The position numbers and the translations under genes were made by a program. 59,305 bases of DNA from an uncultured Gammaproteobacteria bacterium (lineage in GTDB: Bacteria > Patescibacteriota > Microgenomatia > Levybacterales > UBA12049): assembly GCA_964565795.1 (NCBI GenBank), contig CAZMGC010000001.1:8855-68159 (forward strand), in the 5' to 3' direction. This document shows positions 1-55,688 of the stretch, piece after piece. Positions within the stretch are counted from its first letter, which is position 1. Each line of letters opens with the position of its first letter. The notes beneath the pieces were generated by a model. It had not been told where the DNA came from. It saw only the letters and a list, made by a program, of their open reading frames with translations, and searched no databases.

Positions 1-319
1 GGGTTATATCGACATTTGTTAATGCTTTTGGATCAAATGATAATTCGATTTGCGCTCCGCTTATTTCGTCCCCGTTTGTATTTATGATGACATCGGTTTC
101 ATATTTTCCATTTGCCAACTGCCTTATGTCTTCAGAAACTGCTAGGGAAGTGTGAGCGAAATCAACCTTTACTTCTTTTGGAGTTGACTTTAGAGGGGAA
201 AAACTTTTTGAGGTTAGACTTACTACTAAAAGAACGACAGTTAAAATTACAAGTCCAGCAACAAGAAGCCAAGTTTTATTTAATCCATTTTTCTTAGCGC
301 TGTTCAAATTTTCTTCCAT
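1..319 (-). CDS. Membrane-anchored cohesin-like protein; only the N-terminal 106 codons are visible because the 3' part runs off the window edge
   Basis: Own translation of the minus strand from the ATG (rc of 317-319): MEENLNSAKKNGLNKTWLLVAGLVILTVVLLVVSL...DEISGAQIELSFDPKALTNVDIT. It is a collinear paralogue of ORF 2829..3398, with the same N-terminal TM helix and the same ISGAQIEL.F.P motif. Absent from the ORF track because it is truncated. Confidence 0.6.
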   Translation of the reverse strand, partial: MEENLNSAKKNGLNKTWLLVAGLVILTVVLLVVSLTSKSFSPLKSTPKEVKVDFAHTSLAVSEDIRQLANGKYETDVIINTNGDEISGAQIELSFDPKALTNVDIT

Positions 320-325
320 AGTTAA

Positions 326-354
326 TTATTAGTTTTGTACCCGCCTAATGTCAA
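326..354 (-). promoter_or_regulatory. Putative promoter TTGACA-17-TAATAA, 6 nt upstream of the ATG of the truncated cohesin-like gene
   Basis: rc of 349-354 is TTGACA and rc of 326-331 is TAATAA, with a 17-nt spacer. It starts just after the stop codon of the upstream gene (357-359). Confidence 0.4.
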
Positions 355-356
355 TC

Positions 357-2759
357 TTAATCAGGTAAGATTACGCCTTGCTGATTAGCAAATTCTTTAA
401 GGAAAAGTGTGTAATCATCTTCATTTACGATTCCATTGTCATCTAAATCTGAATAAGATGCATTATTTGGGTTTTGATCGCAAGCTGAAGTGTCCTGAGA
501 ATAAATAGAGCAGGAGAGAAGTACATTGTAATCCATTAGATCGATTCTATTTTCAGAAAGATCTACGTTATTTACATTTCCTGTAACTAAATAAAAGTTT
601 TGAGAATTAAGATTTAATGTCTGACCCTTAGAGATTAAGACTGATCCGGGATATTGACCATATAGATATCTTGGACCTTGAATATAGACATTAAAGTTTC
701 CTCTATCAAGTTCGGACAAGAATGGAATCTCTAGCTGGGATTCAAATTTTTCCGATGATGGGCTGTATGTAAATGTGTGTTCAGAATATTCAGCGAATTT
801 TGTGTTATCGCTGGTATTGTAAAGTTTGATCGTTAAATTTCTATTTTTGTGATCAGGATTTTTATTTCCTCCGATTGGAATTCTAGGGGTTGTTCCAATT
901 CCGTCAATTCCAAGCGTTAAATTCATAAAAGTTCTACCGAAGGTCATGGTAGGGGTTGGGGTTATTTGAGTTGGAGTAGGTGTAATTGTGAATGTTGGCG
1001 TGGGAGAATCACCAATAACATAATATATTTGTCTAGAGCTAAGAAGCTGACCGTTAGATGATTTTAAATTTACTGTAATTCTATTTGTACTTGGTTGTGG
1101 AGCATCAGCGGGAGCTTTAACCCTGACGTTTGTGATTTCTCTTGCGCCCGGCGACAGTTGAAAAGAATTTTTACCGAAGAATGCAGTCCATTGACCAGCA
1201 GGCAGTTCTGCTGAAAGGTTAAAGGTTCTTGCCTGACAAGAGCCAGAATCCGAGTTTGTTACTTCGATTCTGTAATCCGCTTCTTCTCCTGGATCAGCAT
1301 TAATTGAATTAGGTGTTACGCCAAAATTTGGAGTGCGTGTTACGCATTTAGGAGTTGGTGTAGGCGTTGGTTCATCAGCGACCACATTATAAATGGCGTT
1401 GTAAGTTTTTGGTGCGCCTCCTGGTCTTTGTGAAGATACAGTAATTGTTTTAGGCCCGTTTGGAGCGCTTGGTGGAGAAGTAACTCTTAGTTTAGTAGTA
1501 GTGCTTTGTCCTGATGCAATAGATAAAGAGGTTTTATCAAATTTATAAGTCCAGGAATTATTTGTATTATTTAAGATAGAAGCAGATAAATTAAATGTTG
1601 TTTCGGCGCAATTTTTATTGTTATTACCAATTTTAACTGTGTAAACGACTTCTTCTCCTGGTTTTCCAATCCCATTTCCATTATCTGGGGTAACTGTGAT
1701 TGATTCAGGATTCTGTTCACATTTTGGTTCAGGAGTTGGGGGGATCTGAGCATTTCCAAAATTTTTATTAGTTTGAGTATTTCCATTTGAAAGAGCTATA
1801 GAGTAAGAAGCGTTATTTAATGGTAGGGTTTGTTGCCATCCTGTTTTTATGGTTTGTTTAACCGTATATGATCCGTCGCAAAGGTCCGTGAATGAATAAG
1901 CACCATTGGTGTCGGACGTATCAGCTTTTTTGGTTCCTCCAGGAAGAGTGAGTTCTACATTCCAACCTGATAAATTTTGTTCTCCGGAATCAAGCGTTGC
2001 ATTTTTATTCAAGTCATTAAATACCACTCCGCTAATAGTTCCTTTTGCAATGATTTGAGAAATTTTGTCATAAATTGTATTAAGATCATCACTTGTTGGG
2101 CTTGCATAATATCTGCCACCGGTTACACTTGCCATCTTTTTTAAGAAGTCCGCATTAATCTGATCGCCAACTCCAATTGTAAATATAATAGTTCCCTGGG
2201 TTTGATGTGCATTTTTAGCCTCAGCAATAGCTTTATTTTCTGCTACTGTCGTATTCACTTTATCTGGGCTACCTTGAATCACATTTGCTTTTCCATCTGT
2301 AAGTAGGATTATTACTTTTTTAGTGTTTGTTCTTCCGTTTTGTTTTAGATTAATAAAGCCTTTATAAATTCCACACTCGATGCATGTTTCGCCCTCAGGT
2401 GTGAGAGAGCCAATTTCTGTTTTTGCGGATTCCCAGTTGTTAGTAAGGGTTCTATCAATTGTTCCTAGATTAGCATAAGAAGAGACTCCAACTCTGTTTC
2501 TGGAATCTTTCGCTAATATATCTACGAATCTTCTAGCCGCTGATTTGGCTTTAGACATTTTTGTACCTGTTGTACCTGAAATTGTATTTTTCATGCTTCC
2601 AGAGCGATCTAGGACAAGCACAACGTCACTTGGAGAATTTCCACACGTGGCAGCTGGATTAACTTGAGCTGAAGCTTCATTTTTTTTAAATTGATAGAAA
2701 ATACCAGCAATTAAAAAAATTATTGAGAGAAGAAAAAACTTTGCGAGCTTGGATTTCAT
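357..2759 (-). CDS. Secreted multidomain surface protein: vWA domain, SdrD-B/Cna-B-like domain, two NEW3/CARDB-like beta-sandwich repeats, conserved C-terminal module ending in a dockerin-like segment
   Basis: 800-aa ORF. N-terminal hydrophobic signal (FFLLSIIFLIAGIFY). vWA MIDAS motif VVLVLDRSGSM. ISGVVFNDLNKNATLDSGE...GSYTVKQ resembles SdrD-B. Two ~120-aa Cys-bracketed repeats (C..TP.F.VTP...PGEE..Y.I.V.N...C..R.F.LSA.LP..W). Two Ca-loop-like motifs at the C-terminus: DLSENRIDLMDYN and DLDDNGIVNEDDYTLF. Confidence 0.85.
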   Translation of the reverse strand: MKSKLAKFFLLSIIFLIAGIFYQFKKNEASAQVNPAATCGNSPSDVVLVLDRSGSMKNTISGTTGTKMSKAKSAARRFVDILAKDSRNRVGVSSYANLGTIDRTLTNNWESAKTEIGSLTPEGETCIECGIYKGFINLKQNGRTNTKKVIILLTDGKANVIQGSPDKVNTTVAENKAIAEAKNAHQTQGTIIFTIGVGDQINADFLKKMASVTGGRYYASPTSDDLNTIYDKISQIIAKGTISGVVFNDLNKNATLDSGEQNLSGWNVELTLPGGTKKADTSDTNGAYSFTDLCDGSYTVKQTIKTGWQQTLPLNNASYSIALSNGNTQTNKNFGNAQIPPTPEPKCEQNPESITVTPDNGNGIGKPGEEVVYTVKIGNNNKNCAETTFNLSASILNNTNNSWTYKFDKTSLSIASGQSTTTKLRVTSPPSAPNGPKTITVSSQRPGGAPKTYNAIYNVVADEPTPTPTPKCVTRTPNFGVTPNSINADPGEEADYRIEVTNSDSGSCQARTFNLSAELPAGQWTAFFGKNSFQLSPGAREITNVRVKAPADAPQPSTNRITVNLKSSNGQLLSSRQIYYVIGDSPTPTFTITPTPTQITPTPTMTFGRTFMNLTLGIDGIGTTPRIPIGGNKNPDHKNRNLTIKLYNTSDNTKFAEYSEHTFTYSPSSEKFESQLEIPFLSELDRGNFNVYIQGPRYLYGQYPGSVLISKGQTLNLNSQNFYLVTGNVNNVDLSENRIDLMDYNVLLSCSIYSQDTSACDQNPNNASYSDLDDNGIVNEDDYTLFLKEFANQQGVILPD

Positions 2760-2776
2760 ATAAAAGCGCTATTCTC

Positions 2777-2805
2777 AGATTATTATAGTACGTTTCCCAT
2801 GTCAA
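2777..2805 (-). promoter_or_regulatory. Putative promoter TTGACA-17-TAATCT for the 800-aa surface protein gene (17-nt leader)
   Basis: rc of 2800-2805 is TTGACA and rc of 2777-2782 is TAATCT. It shares the 16-nt block TACTATAATAATCTGA with the promoter at 6830-6858. Confidence 0.55.
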
Positions 2806-2828
2806 GACTACTGAGAGTTTATAAAAGT

Positions 2829-3398
2829 TTATGGGATATCAGCGGAGATTGTTTCTTTAAGGATCGATTGATTAAGTCCAGTTGTTGAGACCTGGGAAGT
2901 AGGCAGGAATCCTATGTTTGTAGGCTCTTGACTCGTTTTAGTAAAACTTAAAGTAGCTATAACACCTGTTCCATCTATTGTTTCGTCTCCTGGTTTTATG
3001 GCTATTATATATCTTATTACTCCGTTAGTTGTGTCGATAGTTTTAGTTAATACAGTTGGGTTGCTAAGGAAATTTCCAGGAGTAATGTCTACGTTAGTCA
3101 AAAGTGTAGGTTCAAAAGCTAGTTCTATTTGTGCTCCACTAATTTTGTTCCCATTTGTGTTAATTACGATATCGGTTTCGTATGTGGATTCACTCGTGCT
3201 TCTAATATCTTCTGAGACGGAAAGAGAAGTGTTAGCTTCTGCAATCTGTTGATTATTCCCATTTTTGGAAATAAGATTTAGTCCCTTGGAGGAAAGTAAA
3301 ATAATTATTGGAGCAGCAATTAAAATTATTAATCCGGCGACCAAAAGCCACTTTTTATTAGATTCATTTCTTATTGTATTTGTAGAATTTTTTTCCAT
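2829..3398 (-). CDS. Membrane-anchored cohesin-like protein
   Basis: 189-aa ORF with one N-terminal TM helix (WLLVAGLIILIAAPIIILL). This is followed by a beta-rich domain with cohesin-like signature ISGAQIELAFEPTLLTNVDITPGNF...GVIATLSFTKT. Its start lies 1 nt after the stop of the upstream dockerin-bearing gene. Confidence 0.7.
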   Translation of the reverse strand: MEKNSTNTIRNESNKKWLLVAGLIILIAAPIIILLSSKGLNLISKNGNNQQIAEANTSLSVSEDIRSTSESTYETDIVINTNGNKISGAQIELAFEPTLLTNVDITPGNFLSNPTVLTKTIDTTNGVIRYIIAIKPGDETIDGTGVIATLSFTKTSQEPTNIGFLPTSQVSTTGLNQSILKETISADIP

Positions 3399-3399
3399 A

Positions 3400-6300
3400 T
3401 TATTCAGGTAGAATTACGCCTTGTTGGTTTGCGAATTCTTTAAGGAAAAGTGTGTAATCATCTTCGTTCACAAATCCGTCATCGTTTAGATCTGTGTATT
3501 TTTCATTATTTTCATCTGCGTCGCATGCGGATCTATTCTGTGAGTAAACAGAGCAGGAAAGTAAAAGATTATAATCCATTAAATCGATTCTGTTTTCAGA
3601 GAGGTCTGTGTTATTAACATTTCCTGTTATTAAATAGAAATTATTTGAAGTTAAGTCTGTAACTTGTCCTTGAGTGATTGAGAATGACCCCGGATATTGG
3701 TTAGTTAAATATCCTGGGCCGTCAACATAAATATTATATGAGCCATTAGGAAGATTTTCTACAGATGGGAGGTCATACAGTAATTCAAATTTTTCACTAT
3801 TTTGATTGTATGTAAACGTAATATTCGTTCCTGTGAAGCTAAGAGTATTTGTAATAGTATTATAGATTTTGAAATTTAAACCCCTCCAAATATTAGTAGG
3901 ATTTTTATTTCCGCCAATTGGAATTCTAGGAGTAGATCCAATCCCATCGATTCCAATTCTAAAATTTAAGTATGTTTTTCCAGGAATTGGCGTAATTTGA
4001 TCTTGTACGAGATAAACTGCAACGATTGAGGAAATTTCTGTATTGTTTTCAATAAGCTTAAGAACGGTAATATGTTCACCTGTAGTAGAGTTTGATGGAG
4101 AAGTAATTACCACGTTTACATCTCTTGATTCATTCTTGCTAATATTGCTTAGGTTGTCTTGTGATAGGCTTGCGCTCCATCCAGTTGGTGGAGTAGCCTC
4201 GATAGAAAAGGTTCTACCTGCGCAATCTCCTTGATCAATATTTCTTACTGTCACATTATATGTAACTGCTTCACTAGGATTTCCTGTTTTTGTTTGTGGT
4301 GTGATGCTAAATTCTGGATTGTTTTGAACGCATTCATTTGTTTGATCTCCTGGTACAACATAGGCAATATCTTTGGTTGCAATTATTGTATTATTAGGGT
4401 TTTTAATATTTAAAGTTATTTTTTTAGTGCCTGCAGTTGCATTAGTAGGGGATTTTATTTTAACATTTGTAATTTGCTTATCGCCTTGAGCGAGTTCGAA
4501 TGGACTATTTTTCCCAAAAGTAGCTTCCCAATTGGTATTTGGTAAATTAGCAGTAAGCGATAGTGTTTTTGGTGAGCATTCGCCAGTATCTTTATTTAGT
4601 ATTTCGATACTATAACTTGCTTCCTGTCCTGGATTTGCTTCTTGGGAATCTGGAGTAACTGTAAATTCTGGATCTTTTCTAGTACAGGTTGTTGGTGTGT
4701 CAGTAGGATTAGCCACATTGACAGTATAAGTTGCATTTACTTGAACTTGTGCTGTTGTCTGGCCTTCACGTCTTACTCCCAGTGTAAATGTTTTTGGGCC
4801 CTGTGTAGCTCCATTTGGAGATTTAACCTTAAATGTAGTTGATTTATTTCCGCCATTTTTTGAGATACTGCTTAGCGTGTTGTCAGTAAAACTTGCGGTC
4901 CAATTATCGTTTGGTAATCGTTCTTTTGAAAGGACAAAACTTACAGGATTACATGCTTCACCTTTATCATTGTTAGTAACTTTTACACTGTATTCTCTCT
5001 CATCTCCTGGATTTCCGTTTCTGCTATTTGGCGTTATGTCTAAAGTTGGAGCATTCTTGTCGCAGGTTGGTTGAGGTGTTGTAGATGTTCCGCCTCCAGT
5101 TCCTCCTCCAGACTTGGTCGTTTCGTATGAATCCTGAACAATGTTATTACCTTCATTGGTTTCGGAGATTTTTCCTTCTGAATCTACAAAAGCCACTGCC
5201 TTATATTTTCCAGCTGCTGGTCTTGGCATGCCAGTAAAATGACTTGATAGATCGATCTCTTCATTTGCAGATACGACCTGGGTAACGGTCCATAATTTAA
5301 CTGCGCCTCCATCTCTATTTATAACTCTAACTTTAAAATCACCAGTTATTTGAGTATTTCCGATATTTTTAATCTTTACAGTAGGGTTAGAGTTTCCAGT
5401 GTCTACGCCGCCAGGGAAGTTAAAAGCAGAGATTACTAGATCTTTAGTAGCGCCATTAGCTTGTGTTTTTTTAATACCAAAGTTAACTGTATTATTTGCG
5501 CTGAATGTTTTAGAACTACCATCAACGCTTGCTGTGATAGCATTACCACCTACAAAATCTTGATAATTTAATTTAGTGGCAGTATATCCAGATGGAACTA
5601 TTAATCTTACGTTTACTTGACTTGCAGTAGTGGTTCTTTTTAGATCATATGCAAATCCAGTAAGTGTACTGTTAACCGTACTGTCTGCTTGAACAATGTA
5701 TGGGTCTTTATAGAAGAGTTCAGTGTCTCCTTTTCTTCCGTTTCCATCTTCATCTATAAATACGTATCCAGTAAATGAGAGCGTTTTTTGATTTGCTCTA
5801 GTTTCGCATTTGTTTGATGAATTACAAAATTGACCCGAAGTACAATTTTTTAGATTTGAAGTGGTGCATTGTACGCATTTTCCGATACTGCAAATTCCCG
5901 AAGAGCAAACATCAGTAGCGTTAGGTGTGCAGTCCTGAGGTGTCGTAGCTGTTTCTTTACAAGTAGAGAATCCTGGTCTATCTGTAAATGTTCTAGTTTG
6001 AGTTCCAGCAATTGAGCTACATGCAGATCCATTTCCTTGAGGTCTTCCTGATTTTGGTTCACATTTTCCTAGCTTTACTGCGGTAGTGCAATTAGGTGTA
6101 CTGACACAGGTGTGTGTATTTGTATTACAGGAATTTCCGTTTCCGCAACCTCCGCACGCTAAACTTGTTCCGCCGACTGTAAATGTTCCGCAGTAATTAT
6201 TTTGCCTACAAAGGCTTTGTTTATATGTTGTTAAGTCAGAGCATCTGTCTGTAGTAGGCGCACAATATTTAAATGTGGCATTTGAAGAGCACTGACTATT

Positions 6301-6816
6301 TGATGAACATTTTATGCAGTTGGTTGTAACACTTTCATTGCAGTATGGTTTAATTCCGAAAACAATTTGCTTATGTCCCGCAGTAATATTAGCAGTTTTT
6401 GAGTTATCTCTTTTTGTATCAGACGAAGTAAAATTATAAATATATATAAAGTTTAAATCTCTGTTTGGTGCTGTCAGTGTAATTCGGAAATAATCTTCTC
6501 CAAGTTCGTATAAATCTGGATCATTTACTCGCAAGGTAACAGAAGTATTTAAAAATGAACTAACGCAATTTTCTTGCGAGTCTTTAGAAATCGTTCGAGT
6601 TCCTGATGCATCCGTAATAGTGACTTTAAATGTACCATCATAGCAATGATCCGTATTTGTAGTATTAAAATTTCGATTACCATTATCCATAACAGCACCT
6701 ATGTTTAGATTGTAGCTAGCTGCTTGGGCTTTTCCGATAAAGTTAGCTTGAGAGCCAATTAAAAATAGGAAAGAAAGAGAAAATAAAAAGAATAAAAACT
6801 TTTTCACAGTAAACAT
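3400..6816 (-). CDS. Giant secreted surface protein: Cys-rich module, SdrD-B-like domain, CARDB domain, three NEW3/CARDB-like repeats, conserved C-terminal module with dockerin-like end
   Basis: 1138-aa ORF with signal peptide (FLFFLFSLSFLFLIGSQA). About 36 Cys between residues ~160 and ~345. CARDB-like segment DLVISAFNFPGG..PTVKIKNIGNT...ETNEGNN. Three Cys-bracketed ~120-aa repeats. The C-terminal ~190 aa align with the 800-aa protein, including DLSENRIDLMDYN and DLNDDGFVNEDDYTLFLKEFANQQGVILPE. Confidence 0.85.
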   Translation of the reverse strand: MFTVKKFLFFLFSLSFLFLIGSQANFIGKAQAASYNLNIGAVMDNGNRNFNTTNTDHCYDGTFKVTITDASGTRTISKDSQENCVSSFLNTSVTLRVNDPDLYELGEDYFRITLTAPNRDLNFIYIYNFTSSDTKRDNSKTANITAGHKQIVFGIKPYCNESVTTNCIKCSSNSQCSSNATFKYCAPTTDRCSDLTTYKQSLCRQNNYCGTFTVGGTSLACGGCGNGNSCNTNTHTCVSTPNCTTAVKLGKCEPKSGRPQGNGSACSSIAGTQTRTFTDRPGFSTCKETATTPQDCTPNATDVCSSGICSIGKCVQCTTSNLKNCTSGQFCNSSNKCETRANQKTLSFTGYVFIDEDGNGRKGDTELFYKDPYIVQADSTVNSTLTGFAYDLKRTTTASQVNVRLIVPSGYTATKLNYQDFVGGNAITASVDGSSKTFSANNTVNFGIKKTQANGATKDLVISAFNFPGGVDTGNSNPTVKIKNIGNTQITGDFKVRVINRDGGAVKLWTVTQVVSANEEIDLSSHFTGMPRPAAGKYKAVAFVDSEGKISETNEGNNIVQDSYETTKSGGGTGGGTSTTPQPTCDKNAPTLDITPNSRNGNPGDEREYSVKVTNNDKGEACNPVSFVLSKERLPNDNWTASFTDNTLSSISKNGGNKSTTFKVKSPNGATQGPKTFTLGVRREGQTTAQVQVNATYTVNVANPTDTPTTCTRKDPEFTVTPDSQEANPGQEASYSIEILNKDTGECSPKTLSLTANLPNTNWEATFGKNSPFELAQGDKQITNVKIKSPTNATAGTKKITLNIKNPNNTIIATKDIAYVVPGDQTNECVQNNPEFSITPQTKTGNPSEAVTYNVTVRNIDQGDCAGRTFSIEATPPTGWSASLSQDNLSNISKNESRDVNVVITSPSNSTTGEHITVLKLIENNTEISSIVAVYLVQDQITPIPGKTYLNFRIGIDGIGSTPRIPIGGNKNPTNIWRGLNFKIYNTITNTLSFTGTNITFTYNQNSEKFELLYDLPSVENLPNGSYNIYVDGPGYLTNQYPGSFSITQGQVTDLTSNNFYLITGNVNNTDLSENRIDLMDYNLLLSCSVYSQNRSACDADENNEKYTDLNDDGFVNEDDYTLFLKEFANQQGVILPE

Positions 6817-6829
6817 ACCGCTTACAATC

Positions 6830-6858
6830 AGATTATTATAGTATTAAGATTGTGTCAA
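6830..6858 (-). promoter_or_regulatory. Putative promoter TTGACA-17-TAATCT for the 1138-aa gene plus its cohesin partner (13-nt leader)
   Basis: rc of 6853-6858 is TTGACA and rc of 6830-6835 is TAATCT, with a 17-nt spacer. Confidence 0.6.
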
Positions 6859-6910
6859 TACTCGGAATTTTCCTCTTCCAAAAATATTTTTTTAGTGCTA
6901 AACTTTTGAC

Positions 6911-7480
6911 ATGATTTTATCTGACGGGGATATAAAAAAAGCCCTCAAAGAGAAGAGAATCGAAATAACCCCAACTCCAGATTTTTCAACACAACTTGGA
7001 AGCTGTTCAGTTGATCTTCGCCTAGGAGATACATTTAGAGTTTTTGAACATTCTAAATACAGTTTTATAGATCCTTCTAAAAAAGATTTTTCTAATGAAA
7101 TTACCCGCGAAATAAAAATTAAAAAAGGAGATGTTTTTATGATGCAGCCTGGAGATTTCGTCCTGGCAGTGACGCTTGAAAAAGTAAAAATCCCGCCTGA
7201 TCTTATGGGGCGTCTTGAAGGTCGATCTTCGCTTGGACGTCTAGGAATTGTAGTGCATTCTACAGCTTCAATTTTTGATCCTGGGTGGGATGGAAAACCA
7301 GTTCTTGAGCTGGGAAATCTGGGGAGAATGGCTGTGTCTTTAACTGTCGGGATGAGAATTTGTGCTATGACTTTTGAAGAACTATCAAGTCCTGCAGAAA
7401 CTCCATACACTTCTAAAAAATTCGCAAAATATAAATTTCAAGACACCCCAATTGAAAGCCGAATTCACGAAGAAAAATGA
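6911..7480 (+). CDS. dcd: dCTP deaminase
   Basis: 189 aa. MILSDGDIKKAL...SVDLRLG...GRLEGRSSLGRLGIVVH...DPGW.G...LEL.N is the typical Dcd/dUTPase-fold signature. Confidence 0.9.
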   Translation: MILSDGDIKKALKEKRIEITPTPDFSTQLGSCSVDLRLGDTFRVFEHSKYSFIDPSKKDFSNEITREIKIKKGDVFMMQPGDFVLAVTLEKVKIPPDLMGRLEGRSSLGRLGIVVHSTASIFDPGWDGKPVLELGNLGRMAVSLTVGMRICAMTFEELSSPAETPYTSKKFAKYKFQDTPIESRIHEEK

Positions 7481-8157
7481 AATATCATATAGAGTTTGAT
7501 CTGGAATTAAAGAAGAATCCGTATAAAGGGTTATATATTGCCTTAGAGGGAACTGAAGCTTCTGGAAAAACGACTCAAGCTGAAAAATTAAAAGAATATT
7601 TTGAATCAAAGGGAAAACGGGTGGTAACCACAAGAGAACCAAGAAAAGAAGGAATAATTGGAGATATAGTTCATAAGGTTCTTAAGGGTGAACTCCAGAT
7701 GGATTCTTCGGCTTTTCAATATCTTTTTTCTACCGATAGAGTTCTTAATCACAGAGAAGTAGTTGTGCCAGCTTTAGAATTAGGCAGGGTTGTTATTTCA
7801 GACAGGAGTTTTTGGTCTGCAATTGTTTATGGGGTTTTGGATAAAACGGAAGGGGAATATAAAAAAGAAGCAATAGATCAGCTTTTGGTTGCGCAATCCA
7901 TATTATCTTTTTATCATCAATTTATAGTTCCCGATTACACCTTTTTCTTAAAAATTCCTCTTAATCTTTCCATCGAGAGATTACAAAATGAAAGAAAACA
8001 GGCGAAAGAGATTTATGAAGATGAAGGAAAAATTGAAAAAATTATTAAGGGTTATGAATTTGTATTTAAAAATTTTGAAAATGAAATTATAACCATTGAT
8101 GGATCAGCGGATATTGATACTGTTTCTAAGGAAATTATTGGTAAAATTAAACTATGA
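7477..8157 (+). CDS. tmk: Thymidylate (dTMP) kinase
   Basis: P-loop LYIALEGTEASGKTTQ and TREP..G motif. ATGA overlap with the dcd stop. Confidence 0.9.
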   Translation: MKYHIEFDLELKKNPYKGLYIALEGTEASGKTTQAEKLKEYFESKGKRVVTTREPRKEGIIGDIVHKVLKGELQMDSSAFQYLFSTDRVLNHREVVVPALELGRVVISDRSFWSAIVYGVLDKTEGEYKKEAIDQLLVAQSILSFYHQFIVPDYTFFLKIPLNLSIERLQNERKQAKEIYEDEGKIEKIIKGYEFVFKNFENEIITIDGSADIDTVSKEIIGKIKL

Positions 8158-8221
8158 ACATAAATCCAAACCCTCCTTCGCATAAAGCTTCGGAAGGGCA
8201 AGAGAATTATTAAATATTAAT

Positions 8222-8761
8222 ATGATATTAAATCCGAAAATATTATTAGAGCTAGTTAAAAAAGAAAAGTTGGTTGAAAACTTATCTGAAAGAGAACTCA
8301 CAAATCCAGAGGGAACAGGGTTTGACTTGCGATTAGGAGAGGTTTTTAAGATTTCTGGGAAAGCTTTTTTAGGAGAAACTCACAGACAGACTCCAGATAT
8401 AACTTCAGTTAAAGTTTATGACCCAAAAAAACCCAGTAGTATAAAAATAAAACCCGGGGATTTTTTTTTAGTAAAAACAATTGAGAAAATAAATTTGCCT
8501 CTTAATTTATCTGCAGTAATTTTACCTCGCACCACAACATTCCGTTCGGGTTTGTTTATCCGCACCGGACCCATTCAGCCAGGTTACAGTGGTGAGTTGA
8601 CGTTTGGTTTGAAGAACGAGGGTCCTATCACAGTCGAAATCGAAATGGGAGCGCGTTTTACGCATCTTATATTCCACGAAATAAAAGGAGAGGGGTCTAA
8701 ATATAGAGGCCAATGGCAAGGCGGCCGCGTTAGTGCCACAAAAAGAGAAAAACAGGTATGA
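8222..8761 (+). CDS. Second dCTP deaminase/dUTPase-superfamily protein (candidate dUTP-to-dUMP step)
   Basis: 179 aa. GFDLRLGEVF...PGDFFLV.T.E.I.LP..L.A...PR.T..R.GL......I.PGY.G.L.F.L.N matches the dUTPase/Dcd fold pattern. Diverged from the first copy. Confidence 0.75.
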   Translation: MILNPKILLELVKKEKLVENLSERELTNPEGTGFDLRLGEVFKISGKAFLGETHRQTPDITSVKVYDPKKPSSIKIKPGDFFLVKTIEKINLPLNLSAVILPRTTTFRSGLFIRTGPIQPGYSGELTFGLKNEGPITVEIEMGARFTHLIFHEIKGEGSKYRGQWQGGRVSATKREKQV

Positions 8762-8792
8762 AATACTACCAATGTCAAATACTACAAATATT
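8762..8792 (+). repeat. Left repeat arm (two copies of AATACTAC[C/A]AAT); contains the ATG of the four-helix-bundle gene
   Basis: 29/31 nt identical to 19370-19400. Begins 1 nt after the stop codon of ORF 8222..8761. Confidence 0.8.
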
Positions 8793-9143
8793 CCAATAAG
8801 GAAATACGATATTCATGAGCGAATTTATAAGTTTGTGGTGGAAGTAATAAAATTAGTAAATTCTCTTCCCAAAACAGAATCGAATATCGTAATAATAAGA
8901 CAAATTTTAAGATCTGTGACCTCGATGGGTGCAAACGATCAAGAAGCGGACGGAACATTAACGAAAAAAGATTTTTTACATACATACACGATTGTTCGTA
9001 AAGAAGGAAAAGAAACAAATTTTTGGCTTTCGCTAATTTCTGACACAAACCTAACAATAAAAATAAGGTCAGACAAGCTTCTATCGGAGGGAAAAGAAAT
9101 TGTTTTGATTCTTAGCTCGATAATAAATAAAACGAGAAAATGA
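8772..9143 (+). CDS. Four-helix-bundle protein (23S rRNA intervening-sequence protein / Avd-like family)
   Basis: IHERIYKFVVEVIKLVNSLPK...IIRQILRSVTSMGANDQEADGTLTKKDFLHTYTIVRKEGKETNFWLSLI matches the conserved pattern of this family (LP...Q..RS.TS.GAN..EA......DF.....I..KE..ET..WL). I prefer the ATG at 8772 over the track start 8733, which overlaps the preceding gene by 29 nt. Confidence 0.8.
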   Translation: MSNTTNIPIRKYDIHERIYKFVVEVIKLVNSLPKTESNIVIIRQILRSVTSMGANDQEADGTLTKKDFLHTYTIVRKEGKETNFWLSLISDTNLTIKIRSDKLLSEGKEIVLILSSIINKTRK

Positions 9144-9161
9144 CCTATTGAAATATTAAGA

Positions 9162-9195
9162 AATATTGGTAGTATTGGTATGTATTTGTAGTATT
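9162..9195 (+). repeat. Right repeat arm (inverted copies of the 12-mers)
   Basis: Its reverse complement AATACTACAAATacataccAATACTACCAATATT matches the left arm. It ends 5 nt before the thyA ATG. Confidence 0.8.
9166..9194 (+). promoter_or_regulatory. Putative thyA promoter TTGGTA-17-TAGTAT embedded in the right repeat arm, 5 nt before the ATG
   Basis: TTGGTA at 9166-9171, TAGTAT at 9189-9194, ATG at 9200. Confidence 0.4.
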
Positions 9196-9199
9196 AATT

Positions 9200-10192
9200 A
9201 TGGCAGGAAAGAGACACCCCGAATATCAGTACCTCGAAATTGGAAAAGAAATTCTAAAAGATGGAATTAAGCAAACAGACCGCGGAACTGGAGTAGTCAC
9301 ATATAGTTTGTTTGGTCGAAAATCTGAATATGATTTATCAGAGAGTTTTCCGCTTCTTACAACTAAAAGAGTTTACTGGAATGGAGTAATTCAGGAGCTT
9401 TACTGGTTTTTCTCAGGTCAAACCAACATCAAATATTTAGTCGATCATAATACCCATATTTGGGATGATTATCCTTATAAAATTTTTAAAGAAAAAAATC
9501 CTAAGTCGAAAATGACTAAGGATGAATTTATAGAAAAAATTAAAACTGATGCAAAATTTGCAAAACTTCATGGTGAACTTCCGAGAATTTATGGAGAAAT
9601 GTGGAGAAAATGGCCGACTAGGAAAAAAGGAAAGACCGTAGATCAACTTCAGTGGATAGTGGACGAGGTAAAAGCTGATCCAAATGCACATAACTTGATA
9701 GTAAATTCCTGGAATCCTGAGTATCTATATACAATGGCGGATAAGGAAGATGCCTCCAGATTTCCAATTTGCCATAACATGTATCAGGTAAGTAACAGAA
9801 ATGGAAAACTCGATCTTATTCTTTATCAAAGAAGCTGTGATTATTTCCTGGGTGTTCCATTTAATATAGCTAGCTATTCACTTCTTTGTATAGTGCTCGC
9901 AAAGGTTATGGGGCTTAAGCCCGGTAAATTTATTCATATGTACGGAGATATTCATATTTATGAAAATCATATAGAGCAAGTAAAAGAAGAGATAAAAAGA
10001 AAACCAAAGCCATTTCCAAAAGTAAAGATAAATGGGAAAATTTCTAAATTAAATGATTTTAAGCCTGAAATGGTAGAGTTAGTCGGATACGAGCCTCACC
10101 CTTCAATTAAAGCCGAGCTCACTGTCGCCGGCGGTTTTTATCAGGGAAAGTTGAGTAAAGCGAAATCCGCCTCAGGAGGAAAAAAGAAGTAA
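9200..10192 (+). CDS. thyA: Thymidylate synthase (ThyA, long form with small-domain insert and Lys-rich tail)
   Basis: YLEIGKEIL..G....DRGTG..S.FG......L...FPLLTTKRV...G...EL.WF..G.TN, catalytic Cys context RFPICHNMYQ and LYQRSCD..LG.PFNIASY. Confidence 0.9.
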   Translation: MAGKRHPEYQYLEIGKEILKDGIKQTDRGTGVVTYSLFGRKSEYDLSESFPLLTTKRVYWNGVIQELYWFFSGQTNIKYLVDHNTHIWDDYPYKIFKEKNPKSKMTKDEFIEKIKTDAKFAKLHGELPRIYGEMWRKWPTRKKGKTVDQLQWIVDEVKADPNAHNLIVNSWNPEYLYTMADKEDASRFPICHNMYQVSNRNGKLDLILYQRSCDYFLGVPFNIASYSLLCIVLAKVMGLKPGKFIHMYGDIHIYENHIEQVKEEIKRKPKPFPKVKINGKISKLNDFKPEMVELVGYEPHPSIKAELTVAGGFYQGKLSKAKSASGGKKK

Positions 10193-10193
10193 T

Positions 10194-10937
10194 TTATTCT
10201 CCTCCTTTTTTCCAATCGACAGATTTTAGAATTCCTGTAAAAACATCTTCTCCTAAATCTATTTTCATTTCATTAATTTCTTCTTTACTTGGAGTTCTGT
10301 CTACAAAATTTATCTGCCCAATTTCATTTACTATTCCAAGCGGAGTCTGTTCATAAGCTTCTCCCATCTCGAGAACTGATGCTGCTGCGATGCAATCCAC
10401 GATATTTAGAGTTTCCACATGAAGAGGGCGTCCGAAAATATCTGGTTTTCCGATATAGCTTCTAATTGGCTCAAATCCGCACCATGAAAGTCCGACGGCT
10501 GTAACTCCGCGCCTCATAGGTGCCAGTTTGCTATCAGTTACAACCACTCCTAAATTTTTTATCTTATGTTTTTCTCTTAAATATTCCCAGATTTTATTTG
10601 TCGTTTCTGTCAAGTTTTCAGGCCAGAAAATATAGTATCCATTACCATTTGATTCATCAATTCCAGCTGATGCGATTAGAATATTATTTTTAATAGTTAA
10701 AAATACACCGAAGTTTACATATTCCTCAGGTAAATAAAGATCTGCTTCTTTTTTTACCAAGTCCGCTTTATTAATTTTTCCATTGTTTTTGAGAACTCTT
10801 CCCTGGGTAATAGAAATAATTTTCGAGGTAATAACTACGACATCTTTTTCCTGAAGCTTTGGTAATGATTTGTCAAGGATGTCAATAAGTTTATCTGAAA
10901 CTTCTACTTTTTTGGTTTTTATTGGTGTTACTTTCAT
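10194..10937 (-). CDS. CofE-like gamma-glutamyl ligase family protein (F420-0:gamma-glutamyl ligase homologue)
   Basis: 247 aa. VVVITSKIISITQGRV...ASAGIDESNG...VVVTDSKLAPMRRGVTAVGLSW.G...YIGKPDIFGRPL.VE..N..D.IAAA..LEMGE follows the CofE signature. Confidence 0.7.
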   Translation of the reverse strand: MKVTPIKTKKVEVSDKLIDILDKSLPKLQEKDVVVITSKIISITQGRVLKNNGKINKADLVKKEADLYLPEEYVNFGVFLTIKNNILIASAGIDESNGNGYYIFWPENLTETTNKIWEYLREKHKIKNLGVVVTDSKLAPMRRGVTAVGLSWCGFEPIRSYIGKPDIFGRPLHVETLNIVDCIAAASVLEMGEAYEQTPLGIVNEIGQINFVDRTPSKEEINEMKIDLGEDVFTGILKSVDWKKGGE

Positions 10938-11401
10938 GCTGTTTGAATTAAATCAGAAAGACCGTGTTCTTCTAGGAACGCGTGATCAGCTCCGTTTGGA
11001 TTTTCCCCCACAGGCCTTTTTATCCCTGCGATTGTACCATATGAAGGATGAGCAACGGCATCCTCTAATCTTTCTATTACGGCAGTTCCATGATGGGTCG
11101 CGTTATGGGTAAGCCAACTTGCGCCATCTTCAGCGACTAAAACAACTCCTACATGAAATAGTCTAGGGTCTTTATCGGGATTGTCAGTCAGAAAAGCGAT
11201 ATCACCTGTAGCTAATGGTTCATCTGGGGGTACAAATTTTGTGTGTTCTTCATCAACCCAGAGCTCAGCTGAGCGGGGAACATCAAGCATGCTTCTTCCA
11301 AGCGCCTCCACTACAATTCCAGTGTAAAGCTGACAATTCATTCCATCTCCTGGACTTTGTCTTGCAGCTTGTTTGGAAGTATTGCCTGGATGTCGATCCA
11401 A
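10934..11401 (-). CDS. NlpC/P60-like (papain-fold) hydrolase, compositionally atypical; start codon uncertain (TTG in the track)
   Basis: Cys23 (NCQLYTG), GDIAF at 66-70, H83 in FHVGVV and H99 in LTHN give the canonical Cys...GD[IL]xF...HVG...H spacing. The stop overlaps the CofE-like start (ATGA at 10934-10937). The only in-frame ATG is 2 codons before the catalytic Cys, so a non-ATG start or N-terminal decay is implied. Confidence 0.5.
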   Translation of the reverse strand: MDRHPGNTSKQAARQSPGDGMNCQLYTGIVVEALGRSMLDVPRSAELWVDEEHTKFVPPDEPLATGDIAFLTDNPDKDPRLFHVGVVLVAEDGASWLTHNATHHGTAVIERLEDAVAHPSYGTIAGIKRPVGENPNGADHAFLEEHGLSDLIQTA

Positions 11402-11493
11402 TCTGTACGGGATTTGAAGAATTCTTCTTTCTCTAATGAATTTATTTACCTCTTTCGCTGTATAATATAATGGTTAGAGTTCGATTTGTAAAT

Positions 11494-11997
11494 ATGATTA
11501 GTATAATTGCTGCAATTGATTCTAAAAGGGGACTTGGGAAAAATAATGATCTTTTATTTAGAATCCCTGAAGATTTTAAAAGAATGCAAAAAATCACAAT
11601 GGGTCACCCGATCATTATGGGCCGCCGCACTTTCGAATCAATCGGACGACTTCTTCCAGGACGCACTAACATTATTATAACTCGCGATCCTGAGTCTTAT
11701 AGTCTTCCAGCCTCGCAAGGCCAGGCCTTACGAGGCTACTTGGCTTCATCGCTTGATGAGGCGATTGAGATAGCTAAAGAAAGTCCTGGAGGCGAGGAGA
11801 TAGTTATTTTCGGGGGTGGACAGATTTTTACAGAAGCCATAGAAAAAGATTTAGTAGATGTTTTACATCTGACGGTTGTTGAAGGGGATTTCGGAGCTGA
11901 TACCTTTTTCCCAGATTATTCAAAATATACAGAAACAAACAGGGAAGAAAGAGAAGATGAAAATTATAAGTTTACTTTTCTAGATCTTTTGAGATAA
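11494..11997 (+). CDS. folA: Dihydrofolate reductase
   Basis: MISIIAAIDSKRGLGKNNDLLFRIPEDFKRMQKITMGHPIIMGRRTFESIG..LPGR.NII.TR is classical DHFR. The track start 11470 lies only 3 nt after a TATAAT (11461-11466), so the second ATG at 11494 is preferred. Confidence 0.85.
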   Translation: MISIIAAIDSKRGLGKNNDLLFRIPEDFKRMQKITMGHPIIMGRRTFESIGRLLPGRTNIIITRDPESYSLPASQGQALRGYLASSLDEAIEIAKESPGGEEIVIFGGGQIFTEAIEKDLVDVLHLTVVEGDFGADTFFPDYSKYTETNREEREDENYKFTFLDLLR

Positions 11998-12870
11998 TAG
12001 GGCACGCTCTGTAGCTGCTTCTAGTAAGGGATAAGAGTCGATAAACTCATGAATGTTTGGTACGATTTGCCTCATAACTCCAGGATTAAATCCAAATAAT
12101 GCTTTATTAAGTGCGCTTTTTACAGCAGATCTAAAATTGGGATCATTTTTTCCAACTTCATCAAGGCTTTTAACAGCGTCTAAGCTTAGAAGAGTTCCTA
12201 ACGATAGTCCTCCTGCGACGTCTGTAAGTTTCGGAACTCCTAAGCCCTGAATTTGTTCCGCTGAATAAAATCTATAAAATCCTTCGACATAATCAGTAAA
12301 ACCCTGAGGAGAGGAAAAATGTCTAATCAAGTTGGTGTCCAGCACTGCCGTTACTGAATCTGGATTCCCATTTCTTGATCCGCGACCTATAATATAGGTG
12401 CCTGTTTCTACTTCATAATATCCATCTCTGTGCTGTTCTGTTGCGCGTGCCATTTTACCTAAAGTGCGTCTAACGTCTTCAAGGGTTTGTGGTTTTCCAA
12501 GGCTTACAGCTGTCGCTGGGCGATCAGGGGTCAGTCTTTGACCTATATCTGAACTGTGAAGAACCAATGGTCTAGTTCTTACATCAGAGGCTATTACAAA
12601 ATTTCCTGGCCCGCTTGCAAAAGTTCCAATCCTATTATTAGGGTTTGAAGGATCCAGCACAAAATCAGCTTTATGTCTAGCTATTTGAACCATATCCGGA
12701 TGCTCGAGTTCCGGGTTTGGGCCTTCTATAAACATAACTCTATAATTAGAAAAAGATGCTAGTGACAATAGGTAGTGTTGTCTTCGGGGGCTTGTAGTTA
12801 CGCCAATAATTACAGAATCGGGTCGTGGTTCAGGTTCTCTGGCAGAATTGCCCAGAGTTTCTCTTGGCAT
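11980..12870 (-). CDS. Maf-like nucleoside-triphosphate pyrophosphatase homologue with insertions and a C-terminal extension, compositionally atypical
   Basis: IIGVTTSPRRQHYL (Maf: ASxSPRRxxLL), VIASDVRT (Maf: GADTVV) and LGKPQTLEDVRRTLGKM....H.....VETGTYII (Maf: GKP.....A...L..lsG..H.V.TG). 23 Arg against 9 Lys by hand count. The 3' end overlaps the folA 3' end by 18 nt. Confidence 0.5.
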   Translation of the reverse strand: MPRETLGNSAREPEPRPDSVIIGVTTSPRRQHYLLSLASFSNYRVMFIEGPNPELEHPDMVQIARHKADFVLDPSNPNNRIGTFASGPGNFVIASDVRTRPLVLHSSDIGQRLTPDRPATAVSLGKPQTLEDVRRTLGKMARATEQHRDGYYEVETGTYIIGRGSRNGNPDSVTAVLDTNLIRHFSSPQGFTDYVEGFYRFYSAEQIQGLGVPKLTDVAGGLSLGTLLSLDAVKSLDEVGKNDPNFRSAVKSALNKALFGFNPGVMRQIVPNIHEFIDSYPLLEAATERALLSQKI

Positions 12871-46787: not shown

Positions 46788-47299
46788 AAAAAGATGTTGC
46801 CATAGTTATGGGTTCTGATTCAGATTTGCCAATTATGAAAGAAGCAGCAGAAATTCTTGAGGCATTTAATATTTCTTTCGAACTCACAATCGTTTCAGCA
46901 CATAGAACTCCAGAAAGATTATTTAATTTCGCAAAATCAGCAGAAAAAAAAGGTTTTAAAGTAATTATTGCAGGTGCGGGAGGATCAGCGCATTTACCAG
47001 GAATGCTAGCATCTTTGACACCTCTTCCAGTTATAGGTGTTCCAGTTAAAGGAAGATCGTTTGAAGGGTTAGATTCATTAATGTCTATCGTTCAAATGCC
47101 ACCTGGTATTCCAGTAGCGACAGTAGCAGTAAATGGTGCAAAAAACGCAGGAATTTTAGCTGCTAGTATAATTGGATCTAGTAATAAAAAGATATTAAAT
47201 AAAGTTTCTGATTATAAAAAAGCCTTAGAAGAAGAAGTGTCTGAGAAATTTACAAAACTTGAAAAAATTGGATATAAAAAATATTTAGATGAAAAATAA
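46784..47299 (+). CDS. purE: N5-CAIR mutase (PurE class I)
   Basis: V.IVMGS.SD...M..A...L......E..IVSAHRTP and [20 protein letters not shown]. Confidence 0.95.
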
Positions 47300-48746: not shown

Positions 48747-48749
48747 CTG

Positions 48750-55675: not shown

Positions 55676-55681
55676 TATAAT
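55653..55681 (+). promoter_or_regulatory. Putative internal promoter TTGTTA-17-TATAAT straddling the purQ stop, 7 nt before the ATG at 55689
   Basis: TTGTTA at 55653-55658, TATAAT at 55676-55681, purQ stop at 55673-55675. Confidence 0.5.
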
Positions 55682-55688
55682 TTCCAGC

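Follow-up and report, generated by a model that had tools for sequence, protein, structure and literature searches.

Several described systems share features with the locus analysed here. In type II cohesin/XDoc anchoring, exemplified by the Acetivibrio thermocellus CipA XDoc with the SdbA, OlpB and Orf2p cohesins (PDB 2B59, 3KCP, 4FL4, 5K39, 5M0Y) and by the A. cellulolyticus ScaA XDoc with ScaB Coh3 (4U3S, 4WI0), the common ground is a C-terminal β-sandwich X module packed on a two-helix dockerin, a cell-held cohesin partner and a presumed role in fastening a large extracellular protein. Among cellulosome producers, some anchoring scaffoldins are of a non-SLH type and carry, besides a cohesin, an LPXTG sorting signal, LysM or a C-terminal TM helix (PMC11557425), R. 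flavefaciens ScaE being the sortase-anchored case; the shared feature is an envelope-fixed mono- or oligovalent cohesin that receives a dockerin-bearing partner. As at the present locus, cohesins and dockerins that play no part in breaking down plant cell walls occur on putative adhesins and further surface proteins; examples come from the survey of Peer et al. (2009) and the Clostridium perfringens toxin/glycosidase cohesin–dockerin complexes (PDB 2JH2, 2VO8, 2W1N). Non-cellulosomal dockerins also include the dockerin-bearing giant proteins of Omnitrophota and the essential SEML1_0315 of the Saccharibacterium Southlakia, and two reports describe dockerins for which no cohesin partner was identified (PMC10633639, PMC10066038). 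Gram-positive wall-anchored adhesins (MSCRAMM and pilus-tip proteins) offer a functional analogy to protein B below, with an N-terminal VWA/MIDAS head, an SdrD_B/Ig-like stalk and a C-terminal anchoring element.

The window, the whole stretch of 59,305 nucleotides that was analysed, comes from a tiny uncultured CPR bacterium that is Levybacteria-like. Its positions 1–6816 hold, on the minus strand, two tandem modules, each a Sec-secreted multidomain protein followed by a small protein with a TM helix and a β-domain. The ORFs agree with this arrangement as given in a preliminary description, which had called the secreted proteins giant; with 1138 and 800 aa they are large rather than giant. No further module copies occurred in the rest of the window. 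The features are as follows.

3400..6816, minus strand: gene A, 1138-aa secreted multidomain protein (ORF listing)
6721..6816, minus strand: predicted Sec signal peptide of A, residues 1-32, cleavage between AQA and A
3637..4002, minus strand: X module of A, residues 939-1060, β-sandwich against the dockerin (AF2, Foldseek)
3403..3636, minus strand: dockerin-like module of A, residues 1061-1138 (profile, AF2, Foldseek)
2829..3398, minus strand: gene C, 189-aa membrane-anchored single-cohesin protein, subtype 1 (ORF listing, Pfam Cohesin)
3288..3350, minus strand: TM signal-anchor of C, residues ~17-37, WLLVAGLIILIAAPIIILLSS (sequence; AF2 helix at residues 13-36)
2832..3233, minus strand: cohesin domain of C, residues ~56-189 (AF2 pLDDT ~87-96 in the fusion model)
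357..2759, minus strand: gene B, 800-aa secreted protein (ORF listing)
2067..2627, minus strand: VWA domain of B, residues 45-231 (67.1 bits with Pfam PF00092, cut-off 23.8)
594..959, minus strand: X module of B, residues 601-722 (family HMM match; 49% identity to the X module of A)
360..593, minus strand: dockerin-like module of B, residues 723-800 (79.5% identity to its counterpart in A)
1..319, minus strand: gene D, 106-aa N-terminal part of a second TM-cohesin, clipped at the window edge

A single nucleotide separates the stop of A from the start of C (TAA-T-ATG), as the preliminary description had it, and the corresponding spacing in orthologous loci is equally tight (1–8 nt). Protein A consists of a signal peptide, a Cys-rich N-terminal region, CARDB, three NEW3/fn3-like Ig domains, an X module and a dockerin, with Pfam matches to CARDB (2e-8), NPCBM_assoc/NEW3 (4e-20, three stretches) and, weakly, fn3_6. 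Its N-terminus, MFTVKKFLFFLFSLSFLFLIGSQANFIGKAQA followed by AS after the cleavage point, was read by eye as a positive n-region, a hydrophobic core and an AXA motif, which suggests that residues 1–32 are a Sec signal peptide. Protein B runs from a signal peptide through VWA (3e-18), SdrD_B (5e-12), two NEW3 domains (NPCBM_assoc, 1e-9) and a PT linker to an X module and a dockerin. The one feature that suggests an adhesin-like function for B is the VWA domain with its MIDAS motif (DRSGS, at residue 51).

Sequence profiles and structural models support the assignment of the small proteins as cohesins, in agreement with the earlier proposal. Pfam Cohesin (PF00963) matched the small protein with 38 bits (gathering score 24.1) and matched 14/14 members of its family, and the best 44 Foldseek PDB matches of the C cohesin domain were all cohesins (best E 1.4e-8; target-normalised TM ≤0.77), C. 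perfringens cohesins among the matches. The previously listed motifs were present in C (ISGAQIELAFEP..LTNVDIT), in D (ISGAQIELSFDP..LTNVDIT) and in the tails of A and B (DLSENRIDLMDYN, VNEDDYTLFLKEFANQQGVILP). C begins with a Lys-rich segment followed by a hydrophobic helix of 21 residues, which points to an N-in/C-out topology. D is a truncated paralogue with 51% identity to C and belongs to subtype 2 (e.g. P0008; coh HMM 1e-57), whose orthologues have ~207 aa. The wider family of small TM-cohesins comprised 780 clusters at 50% identity (E≤1e-10; median length 204 aa), and an N-terminal hydrophobic 19-mer was found in 146 of 149 representatives. Since the linker from TM helix to cohesin is short (~20–40 residues), a complex with a TM-cohesin would lie near the membrane and not at the outermost surface.

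The partner module is less canonical. A and B share a conserved C-terminal unit of ~200 aa, a β-sandwich plus dockerin, that contains the motif ...DLSENRIDLMDYN...DL(N/D)D(D/N)G(F/I)VNEDDYTLFLKEFANQQGVILP(E/D). When the last ~75–80 aa were searched with Pfam Dockerin_1, as the preliminary description had suggested, A scored 15.9 bits and B had no match, against a cut-off of 22.9. A profile of the tails nevertheless retrieved dockerins as its first 11 PDB matches (E 7.5e-4 to 0.017); homologous tails of relatives passed Dockerin_1 (25.3 and 25.9 bits), and in the wider family, where canonical dockerins occur, PF00404 matched 22 of 30 members (best E 3.5e-11). AF2 modelled the 200-aa tail of A with pLDDT 91.8 and pTM 0.87 (strands at 11–128). 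The best nine Foldseek PDB matches were all X-module/type II dockerin (XDoc) chains, aligned over ~190–200 columns at E 3e-6 to 4e-5, with the tenth onward starting at E 2.5e-3; the likeness is architectural only (17% identity, TM 0.45–0.60, rmsd ~6 Å). The profile matches and the homology to these relatives support a dockerin-type module in both tails. The type I label given earlier did not hold: a bare type I dockerin was rejected in favour of an X-module + dockerin dyad, whose best structural matches were exclusively type II XDoc. As for the duplicated Ca-binding signature, loop 2 (DLNDDGFVNEDDY in A) is a canonical Ca-binding F-hand, whereas loop 1 (GNVNNTDLSENRIDLMDYN in A) differs from the wider family by a 4-residue insertion, D1->N and D5->T, which makes Ca2+ binding at site 1, and hence normal dockerin folding and binding, uncertain. 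The linker of the A module holds a conserved Cys pair. Between the two paralogues, conservation is highest in the dockerin, with 79.5% identity over the last 78 residues against 49% for the X modules and ~45% upstream. The DNA encoding the dockerins is 77% identical, and 24 of the 62 shared residues are encoded by different synonymous codons, which rules out recent gene conversion and indicates purifying selection.

The expected pairing of large and small genes was retained in related genomes, where an XDoc gene followed by a TM-cohesin gene was found as 22 pairs in 17 loci, down to 33–35% cohesin identity and including lineages with canonical dockerins. Each small TM-cohesin gene with upstream sequence had an XDoc-ending gene immediately 5′ on the same strand. 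XDoc proteins outnumbered adjacent cohesins: one locus (L020) had XDoc proteins beyond its cohesin count, such as a third HEXXH protein and a 334-aa protein, and another (L021) had an XDoc gene without a neighbouring cohesin gene, so adjacency is not obligatory. The additional XDoc cargo included a protein resembling HEXXH metallopeptidases as well as relatives that contain subtilase or lyase. P0048, a relative of the small cohesins, carries a TM segment, nine cohesins and a dockerin, and in L008 a cohesin protein of 412 aa, also with TM segments, is encoded nearby.

With two folds, extracytoplasmic topology signals and a conserved pairing established, we consider it probable that the locus encodes a non-cellulosomal cohesin/X-dockerin surface-tethering system. 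In such a system, Sec would export A and B, and an uncleaved N-terminal signal-anchor would hold C and D in the cytoplasmic membrane with the cohesin domain outside. The cohesins of C and D would capture the X-module + dockerin dyads of A and B non-covalently, presumably through a Ca2+-dependent contact, so that the base of each large protein is fixed at the membrane while the Ig-like string (NEW3, CARDB, SdrD_B) projects the N-terminal region outward, VWA/MIDAS in B and Cys-rich in A. Tight gene adjacency, with the 1-nt gap between A and C, suggests that cargo and anchor are co-expressed. As noted earlier, no LPXTG, sortase motif or SLH domain was detected for these proteins; the sortase search, by motif regex and Pfam, covered the 20 largest other ORFs, which leaves room for a sortase elsewhere in the window. 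The word cognate, used previously for the pairing, was not supported, because both dockerin helices are almost the same in A and B, and dockerin proteins outnumber cohesins in relatives; both dockerins may well react with both cohesins. A role in host or substrate attachment is speculative.

Tight operon coupling between a cargo and its small partner is a usual feature of dedicated chaperones too. The TM-cohesin might accordingly be an assembly or export helper, a membrane chaperone or holdase that grips the XDoc tail transiently around Sec export before the large proteins are released or passed to the wall, an S-layer or a pilus; the short linker and the excess of dockerin proteins would fit such a role. 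We regard it as unlikely: A and B have no other visible anchoring signal, dockerin conservation fits a permanent interface equally well, and the characterised cohesin–dockerin pairs of cellulosomes are stable, high-affinity structural contacts. An anchoring use of such pairs has been described (PMC5141474, PMC11557425). It is very improbable that the two halves do not bind each other at all, with the tail serving as a Ca-binding, structural or ligand-binding module (e.g. for glycan or host surface), the cohesin-fold protein unrelated and adjacency reflecting co-regulation only. The sub-threshold Dockerin_1 score and degenerate loop 1 point that way, and many non-cellulosomal cohesin and dockerin modules are without a demonstrated partner in what PMC10066038 relays of Peer et al. 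(2009). An exploratory AF2 fusion of tail and small protein, made with a partly misaligned tail MSA, reached pTM 0.59, with dockerin pLDDT down to 69–87, and speaks neither for nor against binding. Against it, both halves of the only known cohesin–dockerin partnership are direct neighbours in 22 pairs across deep divergence, and the XDoc architecture is exactly that of the chains whose crystal structures include a bound cohesin.

The likeness of the A and B dockerins fits a further possibility, namely promiscuous binding, in which a dockerin accepts various cohesins, among them those of poly-cohesin scaffoldin-like proteins or of neighbouring cells, so that a mixed surface complex (adhesin, protease and others) or cell–cell aggregates would be built in place of 1:1 tethering. 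The XDoc cargo lacking its own cohesin, the nine-cohesin P0048 and the 412-aa protein of L008 agree with this. However, the window has no poly-cohesin protein, and the one-cargo/one-cohesin order is kept over wide divergence, which suggests that the neighbouring gene product is a main partner, if not the only one. We therefore doubt promiscuous networking as the main arrangement; it refines the tethering explanation and does not contradict it.

By analogy, the proposed tethering would resemble the type II cohesin–XDoc step that fastens a cellulosome scaffoldin to the cell, and the chains of the CipA and ScaA systems named above were the top structural matches for both halves. Only the clip mechanism of the preliminary "cellulosome-style" label stands: no CAZyme or scaffoldin was found, and the system is therefore not a cellulosome. 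Compared with type II XDoc anchoring, the anchor is a single-pass protein of ~190 aa, with an N-terminal TM helix and a single cohesin, in place of an SLH-domain scaffoldin, and the cargo is neither a poly-cohesin scaffoldin nor equipped with CBM3 or a glycoside hydrolase. The dockerin differs in its non-canonical loop 1 (4-aa insertion), the Cys pair in its linker and its ~17% identity, the cohesin is compact (best TM 0.70–0.77 to type I-sized cohesins versus 0.53–0.60 to type II), and the organism is a CPR bacterium. Unlike in non-SLH anchoring scaffoldins, the anchor here is an N-terminal signal-anchor helix, its gene is paired 1:1 with a cargo gene, and cellulosomal enzymes are absent. Whereas Gram-positive wall-anchored adhesins end in LPXTG, B ends in an XDoc dyad, so that B would be held non-covalently by a membrane protein. 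The cargo appears adhesin-like or protease-like and not cellulolytic, and the anchor a minimal TM protein. In contrast to the reported non-cellulosomal dockerins, the operonic pairing of XDoc cargo with a TM-cohesin provides a specific candidate partner and a topology.

Four successive ORFs, all on the minus strand, occupy positions 1-6816 of the window:

3400-6816, minus strand: A, large secreted cargo protein, ORF of 1138 aa
2829-3398, minus strand: C, small transmembrane (TM) cohesin protein, ORF of 189 aa
357-2759, minus strand: B, large secreted cargo protein, ORF of 800 aa
1-319, minus strand: D, paralogue of C truncated at the window edge, 106 N-terminal aa

C and D share 51% identity across the 106 residues, and both contain the motif ISGAQIEL(A/S)F(E/D)P..LTNVDIT reported in the preliminary description. 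We also confirmed from that description the 1-nt gap that separates the A stop codon from the C start codon (TAA-T-ATG) and the motifs ending A and B, DLSENRIDLMDYN plus DL(N/D)D(D/N)G(F/I)VNEDDYTLF. A promoter and terminator scan returned counts equal to shuffle expectation and was uninformative, so the operon structure was read from gene spacing only. No further copies of either module were found in the window, NCBIfam assigned no name to either A or C, and the tRNA and Rfam scans were empty. A and B are 42% identical over their C-terminal ~445 residues and 79.5% identical over the last 78. Recent gene conversion between the two dockerins was ruled out by their DNA identity of 77% with 24 synonymous differences; the use of different codons at 24 of 62 identical residues points instead to conservation of the tails at the protein level.

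The proposed resemblance of the small proteins to cohesins was upheld. C matched Pfam Cohesin (PF00963) at 38.0 bits (E 2.3e-9; gathering score 24.1), as did 14 of 14 members of its immediate family; D alone, which is truncated ahead of most of the domain, left PF00963 unmatched and matched the family HMM at 1e-57. The cohesin fold is a nine-stranded β-sandwich (jelly-roll), and in an AF2 fusion model the C domain was all-β with a pLDDT of ~87-96. When this domain was searched against the PDB with Foldseek, the top 44 matches were all cohesins (E down to 1.4e-8, target-normalised TM up to 0.77). The best E value (1.4e-8) belonged to type II cohesins crystallised with partners composed of an X module and a dockerin (4U3S_A, 5K39_A, 4WI0_A), and the best target-normalised TM values (0.70-0.77) to the compact type I cohesins 1ANU and 2CCL_A. 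At the sequence level, C as a single query had 0 matches in the PDB, and the small-cohesin family profile matched weakly (E ~0.1), with cohesins making up 10 of the 11 matches. C begins with a Lys-rich segment, after which comes a hydrophobic stretch of 21 residues without an AXA site close by; AF2 modelled residues 13-36 as a helix. Together, the PF00963 and Foldseek matches and the N-terminal hydrophobic helix indicate that the small proteins are single-cohesin proteins with a signal-anchor, for which the sequence predicts an N-in/C-out topology.

The C-terminal tails of A and B had been read as dockerins, with Pfam Dockerin_1 (PF00404; gathering score 22.9 bits) as the proposed test, and individually they fell short of it. 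The A tail, scanned as the last 80 aa, scored 15.9 bits (E 0.016) through loop 2 only, and the B tail gave no match; phmmer searches of single tails against the PDB reached E ~0.1-0.2 only. A profile of nine window-type tails had eleven dockerins as its best PDB matches (E 7.5e-4 to 0.017), followed by EF-hand proteins, all aligned via loop 2 and its helix. Syntenic relatives encode a third cargo whose tails are canonical (GDSNGDGILSNHDY...ADLSDDGRVDQDDY) and, scanned alone, pass Dockerin_1 across the full model (25.3 and 25.9 bits); these tails are homologous to those of the window (BLASTP 9e-14 over the last ~190 aa; tail-only HMM ~1e-10). A profile of the last 200 aa recovered a wider CPR family (Daviesbacteria, Saccharimonadales and others; E 1e-38 to 1e-24), in which 22 of 30 aligned members match Dockerin_1 at E<=0.01 (best 3.5e-11). 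Judged at the family level, and despite the sub-threshold Pfam score, these comparisons show that the tails contain a predicted dockerin.

Canonical dockerins consist of two duplicated 12-residue F-hand loops (D-x-N/D-x-D-G-x-I/V-x-x-x-D), each followed by a helix. Of the duplicated type I Ca-binding signature claimed at the outset, one half stands: loop 2 (DLNDDGFVNEDD) is canonical, whereas loop 1 (NVNNTDLSENRIDLMD) is atypical. In the alignment, loop 1 of the Levybacteria-type subfamily differs from the family consensus GDVNNDNxLxILDYN by a 4-residue insertion and by the replacements D1->N and D5->T, and the window reads GNVNNTDLSENRIDLMDYN at this site. The tail alignment shows conservation of loop 2, of the two helices and of a pair of linker cysteines, C150 and C160 in the numbering of the 200-aa tail unit. 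C150 is invariant and C160 occurs in at least 90% of members; the two could form a disulfide. Dockerins are Ca2+-dependent, and a Na+/Ca2+ exchanger family protein (PF01699) encoded at 38627-39562 on the plus strand may be of incidental interest in this respect.

The ~200 C-terminal residues are conserved as one block across the family, and the two copies in the window each carry the Cys pair and an X-module start motif:

3403-4002, minus strand: X-module + dockerin unit of A
360-959, minus strand: X-module + dockerin unit of B

The start motif reads GIDGIG..IPIGGNKNP, and hGIGxxGDNxNP..GNxNP in the wider family. AF2 modelled the 200-aa unit with a pLDDT of 91.8 and a pTM of 0.87, as a β-sandwich (strands within 11-128) packed on a helical domain that includes both main dockerin helices (H141-150, two short linker helices, H180-190). 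This is the arrangement of an XDoc dyad, in which the X module lies N-terminal to the dockerin and packs on it as a rigid unit. The nine best Foldseek matches in the PDB (E 3e-6 to 4e-5, probability 1.00, ~190-200 aligned columns) were all X-module + type II dockerin chains (4WI0_B, 4U3S_B, 5K39_B, 3KCP_A, 4FL4 I/C/L, 5M0Y_B and 2B59_B), and the tenth was a generic β-sandwich at E 2.5e-3. Because identity to these chains is 15-18% and TM 0.45-0.60, the equivalence seen in the model is architectural and does not prove orthology with type II modules.

We mapped cohesin and XDoc HMMs onto all retrieved loci from other genomes (numbered with L). The pairing of a large and a small gene, predicted for related genomes, was recovered throughout: an XDoc-ending gene lies directly upstream, on the same strand, of each small TM-cohesin gene whose upstream region could be read, giving 22 pairs in 17 loci, where (2) marks two pairs:

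Window (2), L001, L004 (2), L007 (2), L008/L014, L009 (2), L010 (2), L011-L013, L015, L016
L017, L018 (distant, 33-35% cohesin identity), L020 (2), L023, L024

In close relatives the full cluster runs in the order A-type cargo, cohesin subtype 1 (C-type, 188-189 aa), VWA cargo, cohesin subtype 2 (D-type, 200-208 aa) and HEXXH cargo. The last of these, the third cargo, is a protein of ~900-950 aa located at:

L004, 7038-9884
L008, 6840-9551
L009, 13391-16222
L015, 6262-9057

It combines the HEXXH motif and weak matches to M6/M10/M43-type metallopeptidases with a canonical XDoc tail, and its gene follows the second cohesin gene with no cohesin gene of its own behind it. By synteny, this gene should lie just past the left edge of the window. 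XDoc genes without an adjacent cohesin were also found in L021 and for a 334-aa protein of L020, so that dockerins outnumber cohesins. A few genes downstream of the cluster in L008 (10069-11307, minus strand), a 412-aa protein matches Cohesin at 25.5 bits against 24.1. It starts with a TM segment, has a linker rich in PT and ends in a hydrophobic segment, and it might serve as receptor for the canonical dockerin that the third cargo carries. The preliminary description had treated each cargo and its neighbour as cognate. Within one genome, however, identity is 73-80% between the two dockerins and ~65% between the two cohesin domains, and this similarity suggests that the dockerins of A and B would cross-react with both cohesins rather than form diverged cognate pairs.

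With a profile of the small-cohesin alignment, 1.84 billion representatives were searched exhaustively; 2322 proteins reached E<=1e-3, and 780 of these E<=1e-10. Among 149 of the best-scoring matches, 142 were 170-250 aa long (median 204) and 146 had an N-terminal hydrophobic segment. P0048, a JGI metagenome protein of 2276 aa, joins an N-terminal TM segment and nine cohesin repeats to a C-terminal dockerin of the canonical double-loop type, and is by this composition a scaffoldin-like relative of the small TM-cohesins. Judged by how its close homologues are named, the window comes from a Levybacteria-like CPR bacterium. A locus 77% identical to that of the window sits on a 785-kb contig, which fits a reduced genome. 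Several public MAGs with a Levybacteria-type locus (L009-L012, L014-L016, L018) are titled "uncultured Gammaproteobacteria bacterium"; given their CPR-type gene content and homologues named Levybacteria, these titles appear to be a submission-pipeline mislabel.

The remaining genes of the window are housekeeping genes, and no other cohesins or dockerins were found among them. A dCTP-deaminase/thymidylate-kinase/thyA block at 6911-10192 on the plus strand usually adjoins the cohesin/XDoc cluster and is syntenic in most related loci (L001, L007, L008, L020, L024):

6911-7480 and 8222-8761, plus strand: dCTP-deaminase paralogues, flanking thymidylate kinase
7477-8157, plus strand: thymidylate kinase
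9200-10192, plus strand: thymidylate synthase

Within this block, a 136-aa ORF (8733-9143, plus strand) resembles four-helix-bundle "23S rRNA intervening-sequence / bAvd-like" proteins, and an L007 gene in a similar position carries PF05635/PF22296. As bAvd is an accessory protein of diversity-generating retroelements (DGRs), the proximity of this ORF to the cohesin/XDoc genes led us to consider a DGR acting on A or B; this was rejected, with no TR/VR-type repeat in 1-12000 and no reverse transcriptase noticed. In the usual description, CPR bacteria have little capacity for nucleotide synthesis; this CPR-type genome carries IMPDH, GMP synthase and SHMT at 12.9-17 kb and a de novo purine-biosynthesis cluster that includes a NUDIX-PurC fusion, which is unusual:

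45654-57088, plus strand: purine cluster with ATP-grasp PurK-like, PurF-like, PurD, PurL (957 aa) and PurM-like genes
47289-48746, plus strand: NUDIX + SAICAR-synthetase fusion, in the purine cluster

Predicted signal peptides were read from the sequences of both A and B. In A, a Cys-rich N-terminal region precedes CARDB and three NEW3/fn3-like domains. B matches PF00092 (VWA) at 67.1 bits against 23.8 and has the MIDAS sequence DRSGS at residue 51, thus combining the VWA fold and DxSxS motif of VWA/MIDAS extracellular proteins. Among the cargo of relatives are a metallopeptidase-like protein, a subtilase and a polysaccharide-lyase domain; given this variety, the system looks like a means of displaying surface proteins in general and not one specific to adhesins. 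In the best-supported model, A and B would be exported by Sec and would dock, via the XDoc dyad, onto the extracellular cohesin that the adjoining gene encodes, resulting in a non-covalent membrane tether. The folds and the gene pairing are well supported; cohesin-XDoc binding is plausible, short of proof. In an AF2 fusion of natural neighbours, obtained without PAE or contacts, pLDDT was 80.5 and pTM 0.59, only slightly above the ~0.5 roughly estimated for two undocked domains, with ~13-17 tail residues of the MSA spilled over the junction. The role in host attachment raised in the preliminary description is speculative.

To our knowledge, little has been established about surface organisation and host attachment in CPR/Patescibacteria, whose large surface proteins mostly lack annotation. 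The locus offers a testable partner and topology, namely a minimal membrane cohesin beside each XDoc cargo; the pairing is conserved across wide divergence, and the small cohesins form a family of hundreds of sequence clusters. We put forward tentatively, as a generalisation that may well prove too broad, that TM-anchored single cohesins and neighbouring XDoc-cargo genes constitute a widespread, undescribed, sortase-independent display system general to CPR/Patescibacteria, serving adhesins, proteases and polysaccharide-active enzymes, and supply the missing partner of "orphan" dockerin proteins, including the essential one of an epibiotic Saccharibacterium. If true, it would be central to the way in which ultra-small episymbionts construct the surface that meets their host. 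The locus also provides a very small natural candidate cohesin/XDoc pair, in which loop 1 is unusual and the linker could form a disulfide, and which could suit protein-display engineering.

Compared with known systems, the locus is not a cellulosome. Cellulosomes assemble dockerin-bearing CAZymes on a multi-cohesin scaffoldin with a CBM; here, Pfam detected no GH, PL, CE or CBM3 domains in A or B, and each cohesin protein holds one cohesin. As in the preliminary description, no sortase-type or S-layer anchor was visible: SLH was unmatched in A, B and C, and the real ORFs of the window contain no LPXTG or TLxTC motif, the lone match belonging to an antisense ORF that is spurious. The C-termini of A and B, ...GVILP(E/D), have no hydrophobic tail, unlike those of sortase-anchored proteins, which carry LPXTG and such a tail. 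In its layout of N-terminal VWA/MIDAS, SdrD_B + NEW3 stalk and C-terminal anchoring element, B is the same as a Gram-positive adhesin.

Cohesin-dockerin pairs and the anchoring of XDoc to type II cohesins are already known, and in cellulosomes XDoc fastens the scaffoldin to cell-bound cohesins. Non-SLH anchoring scaffoldins, including ones with TM helices, have been described (PMC11557425), as have non-cellulosomal cohesin/dockerin modules (Peer et al. 2009, as cited in PMC10066038). Dockerins have been noted on surface proteins of CPR and Omnitrophota, one of them essential in a cultivated Saccharibacterium (PMC10633639); the literature searched identified no partner for these proteins. A partnered TM-cohesin/XDoc operon in CPR had no description in the searchable literature, whose coverage is incomplete and does not prove novelty. 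Set beside these systems, the locus would extend the X-dockerin anchoring principle beyond cellulosomes.
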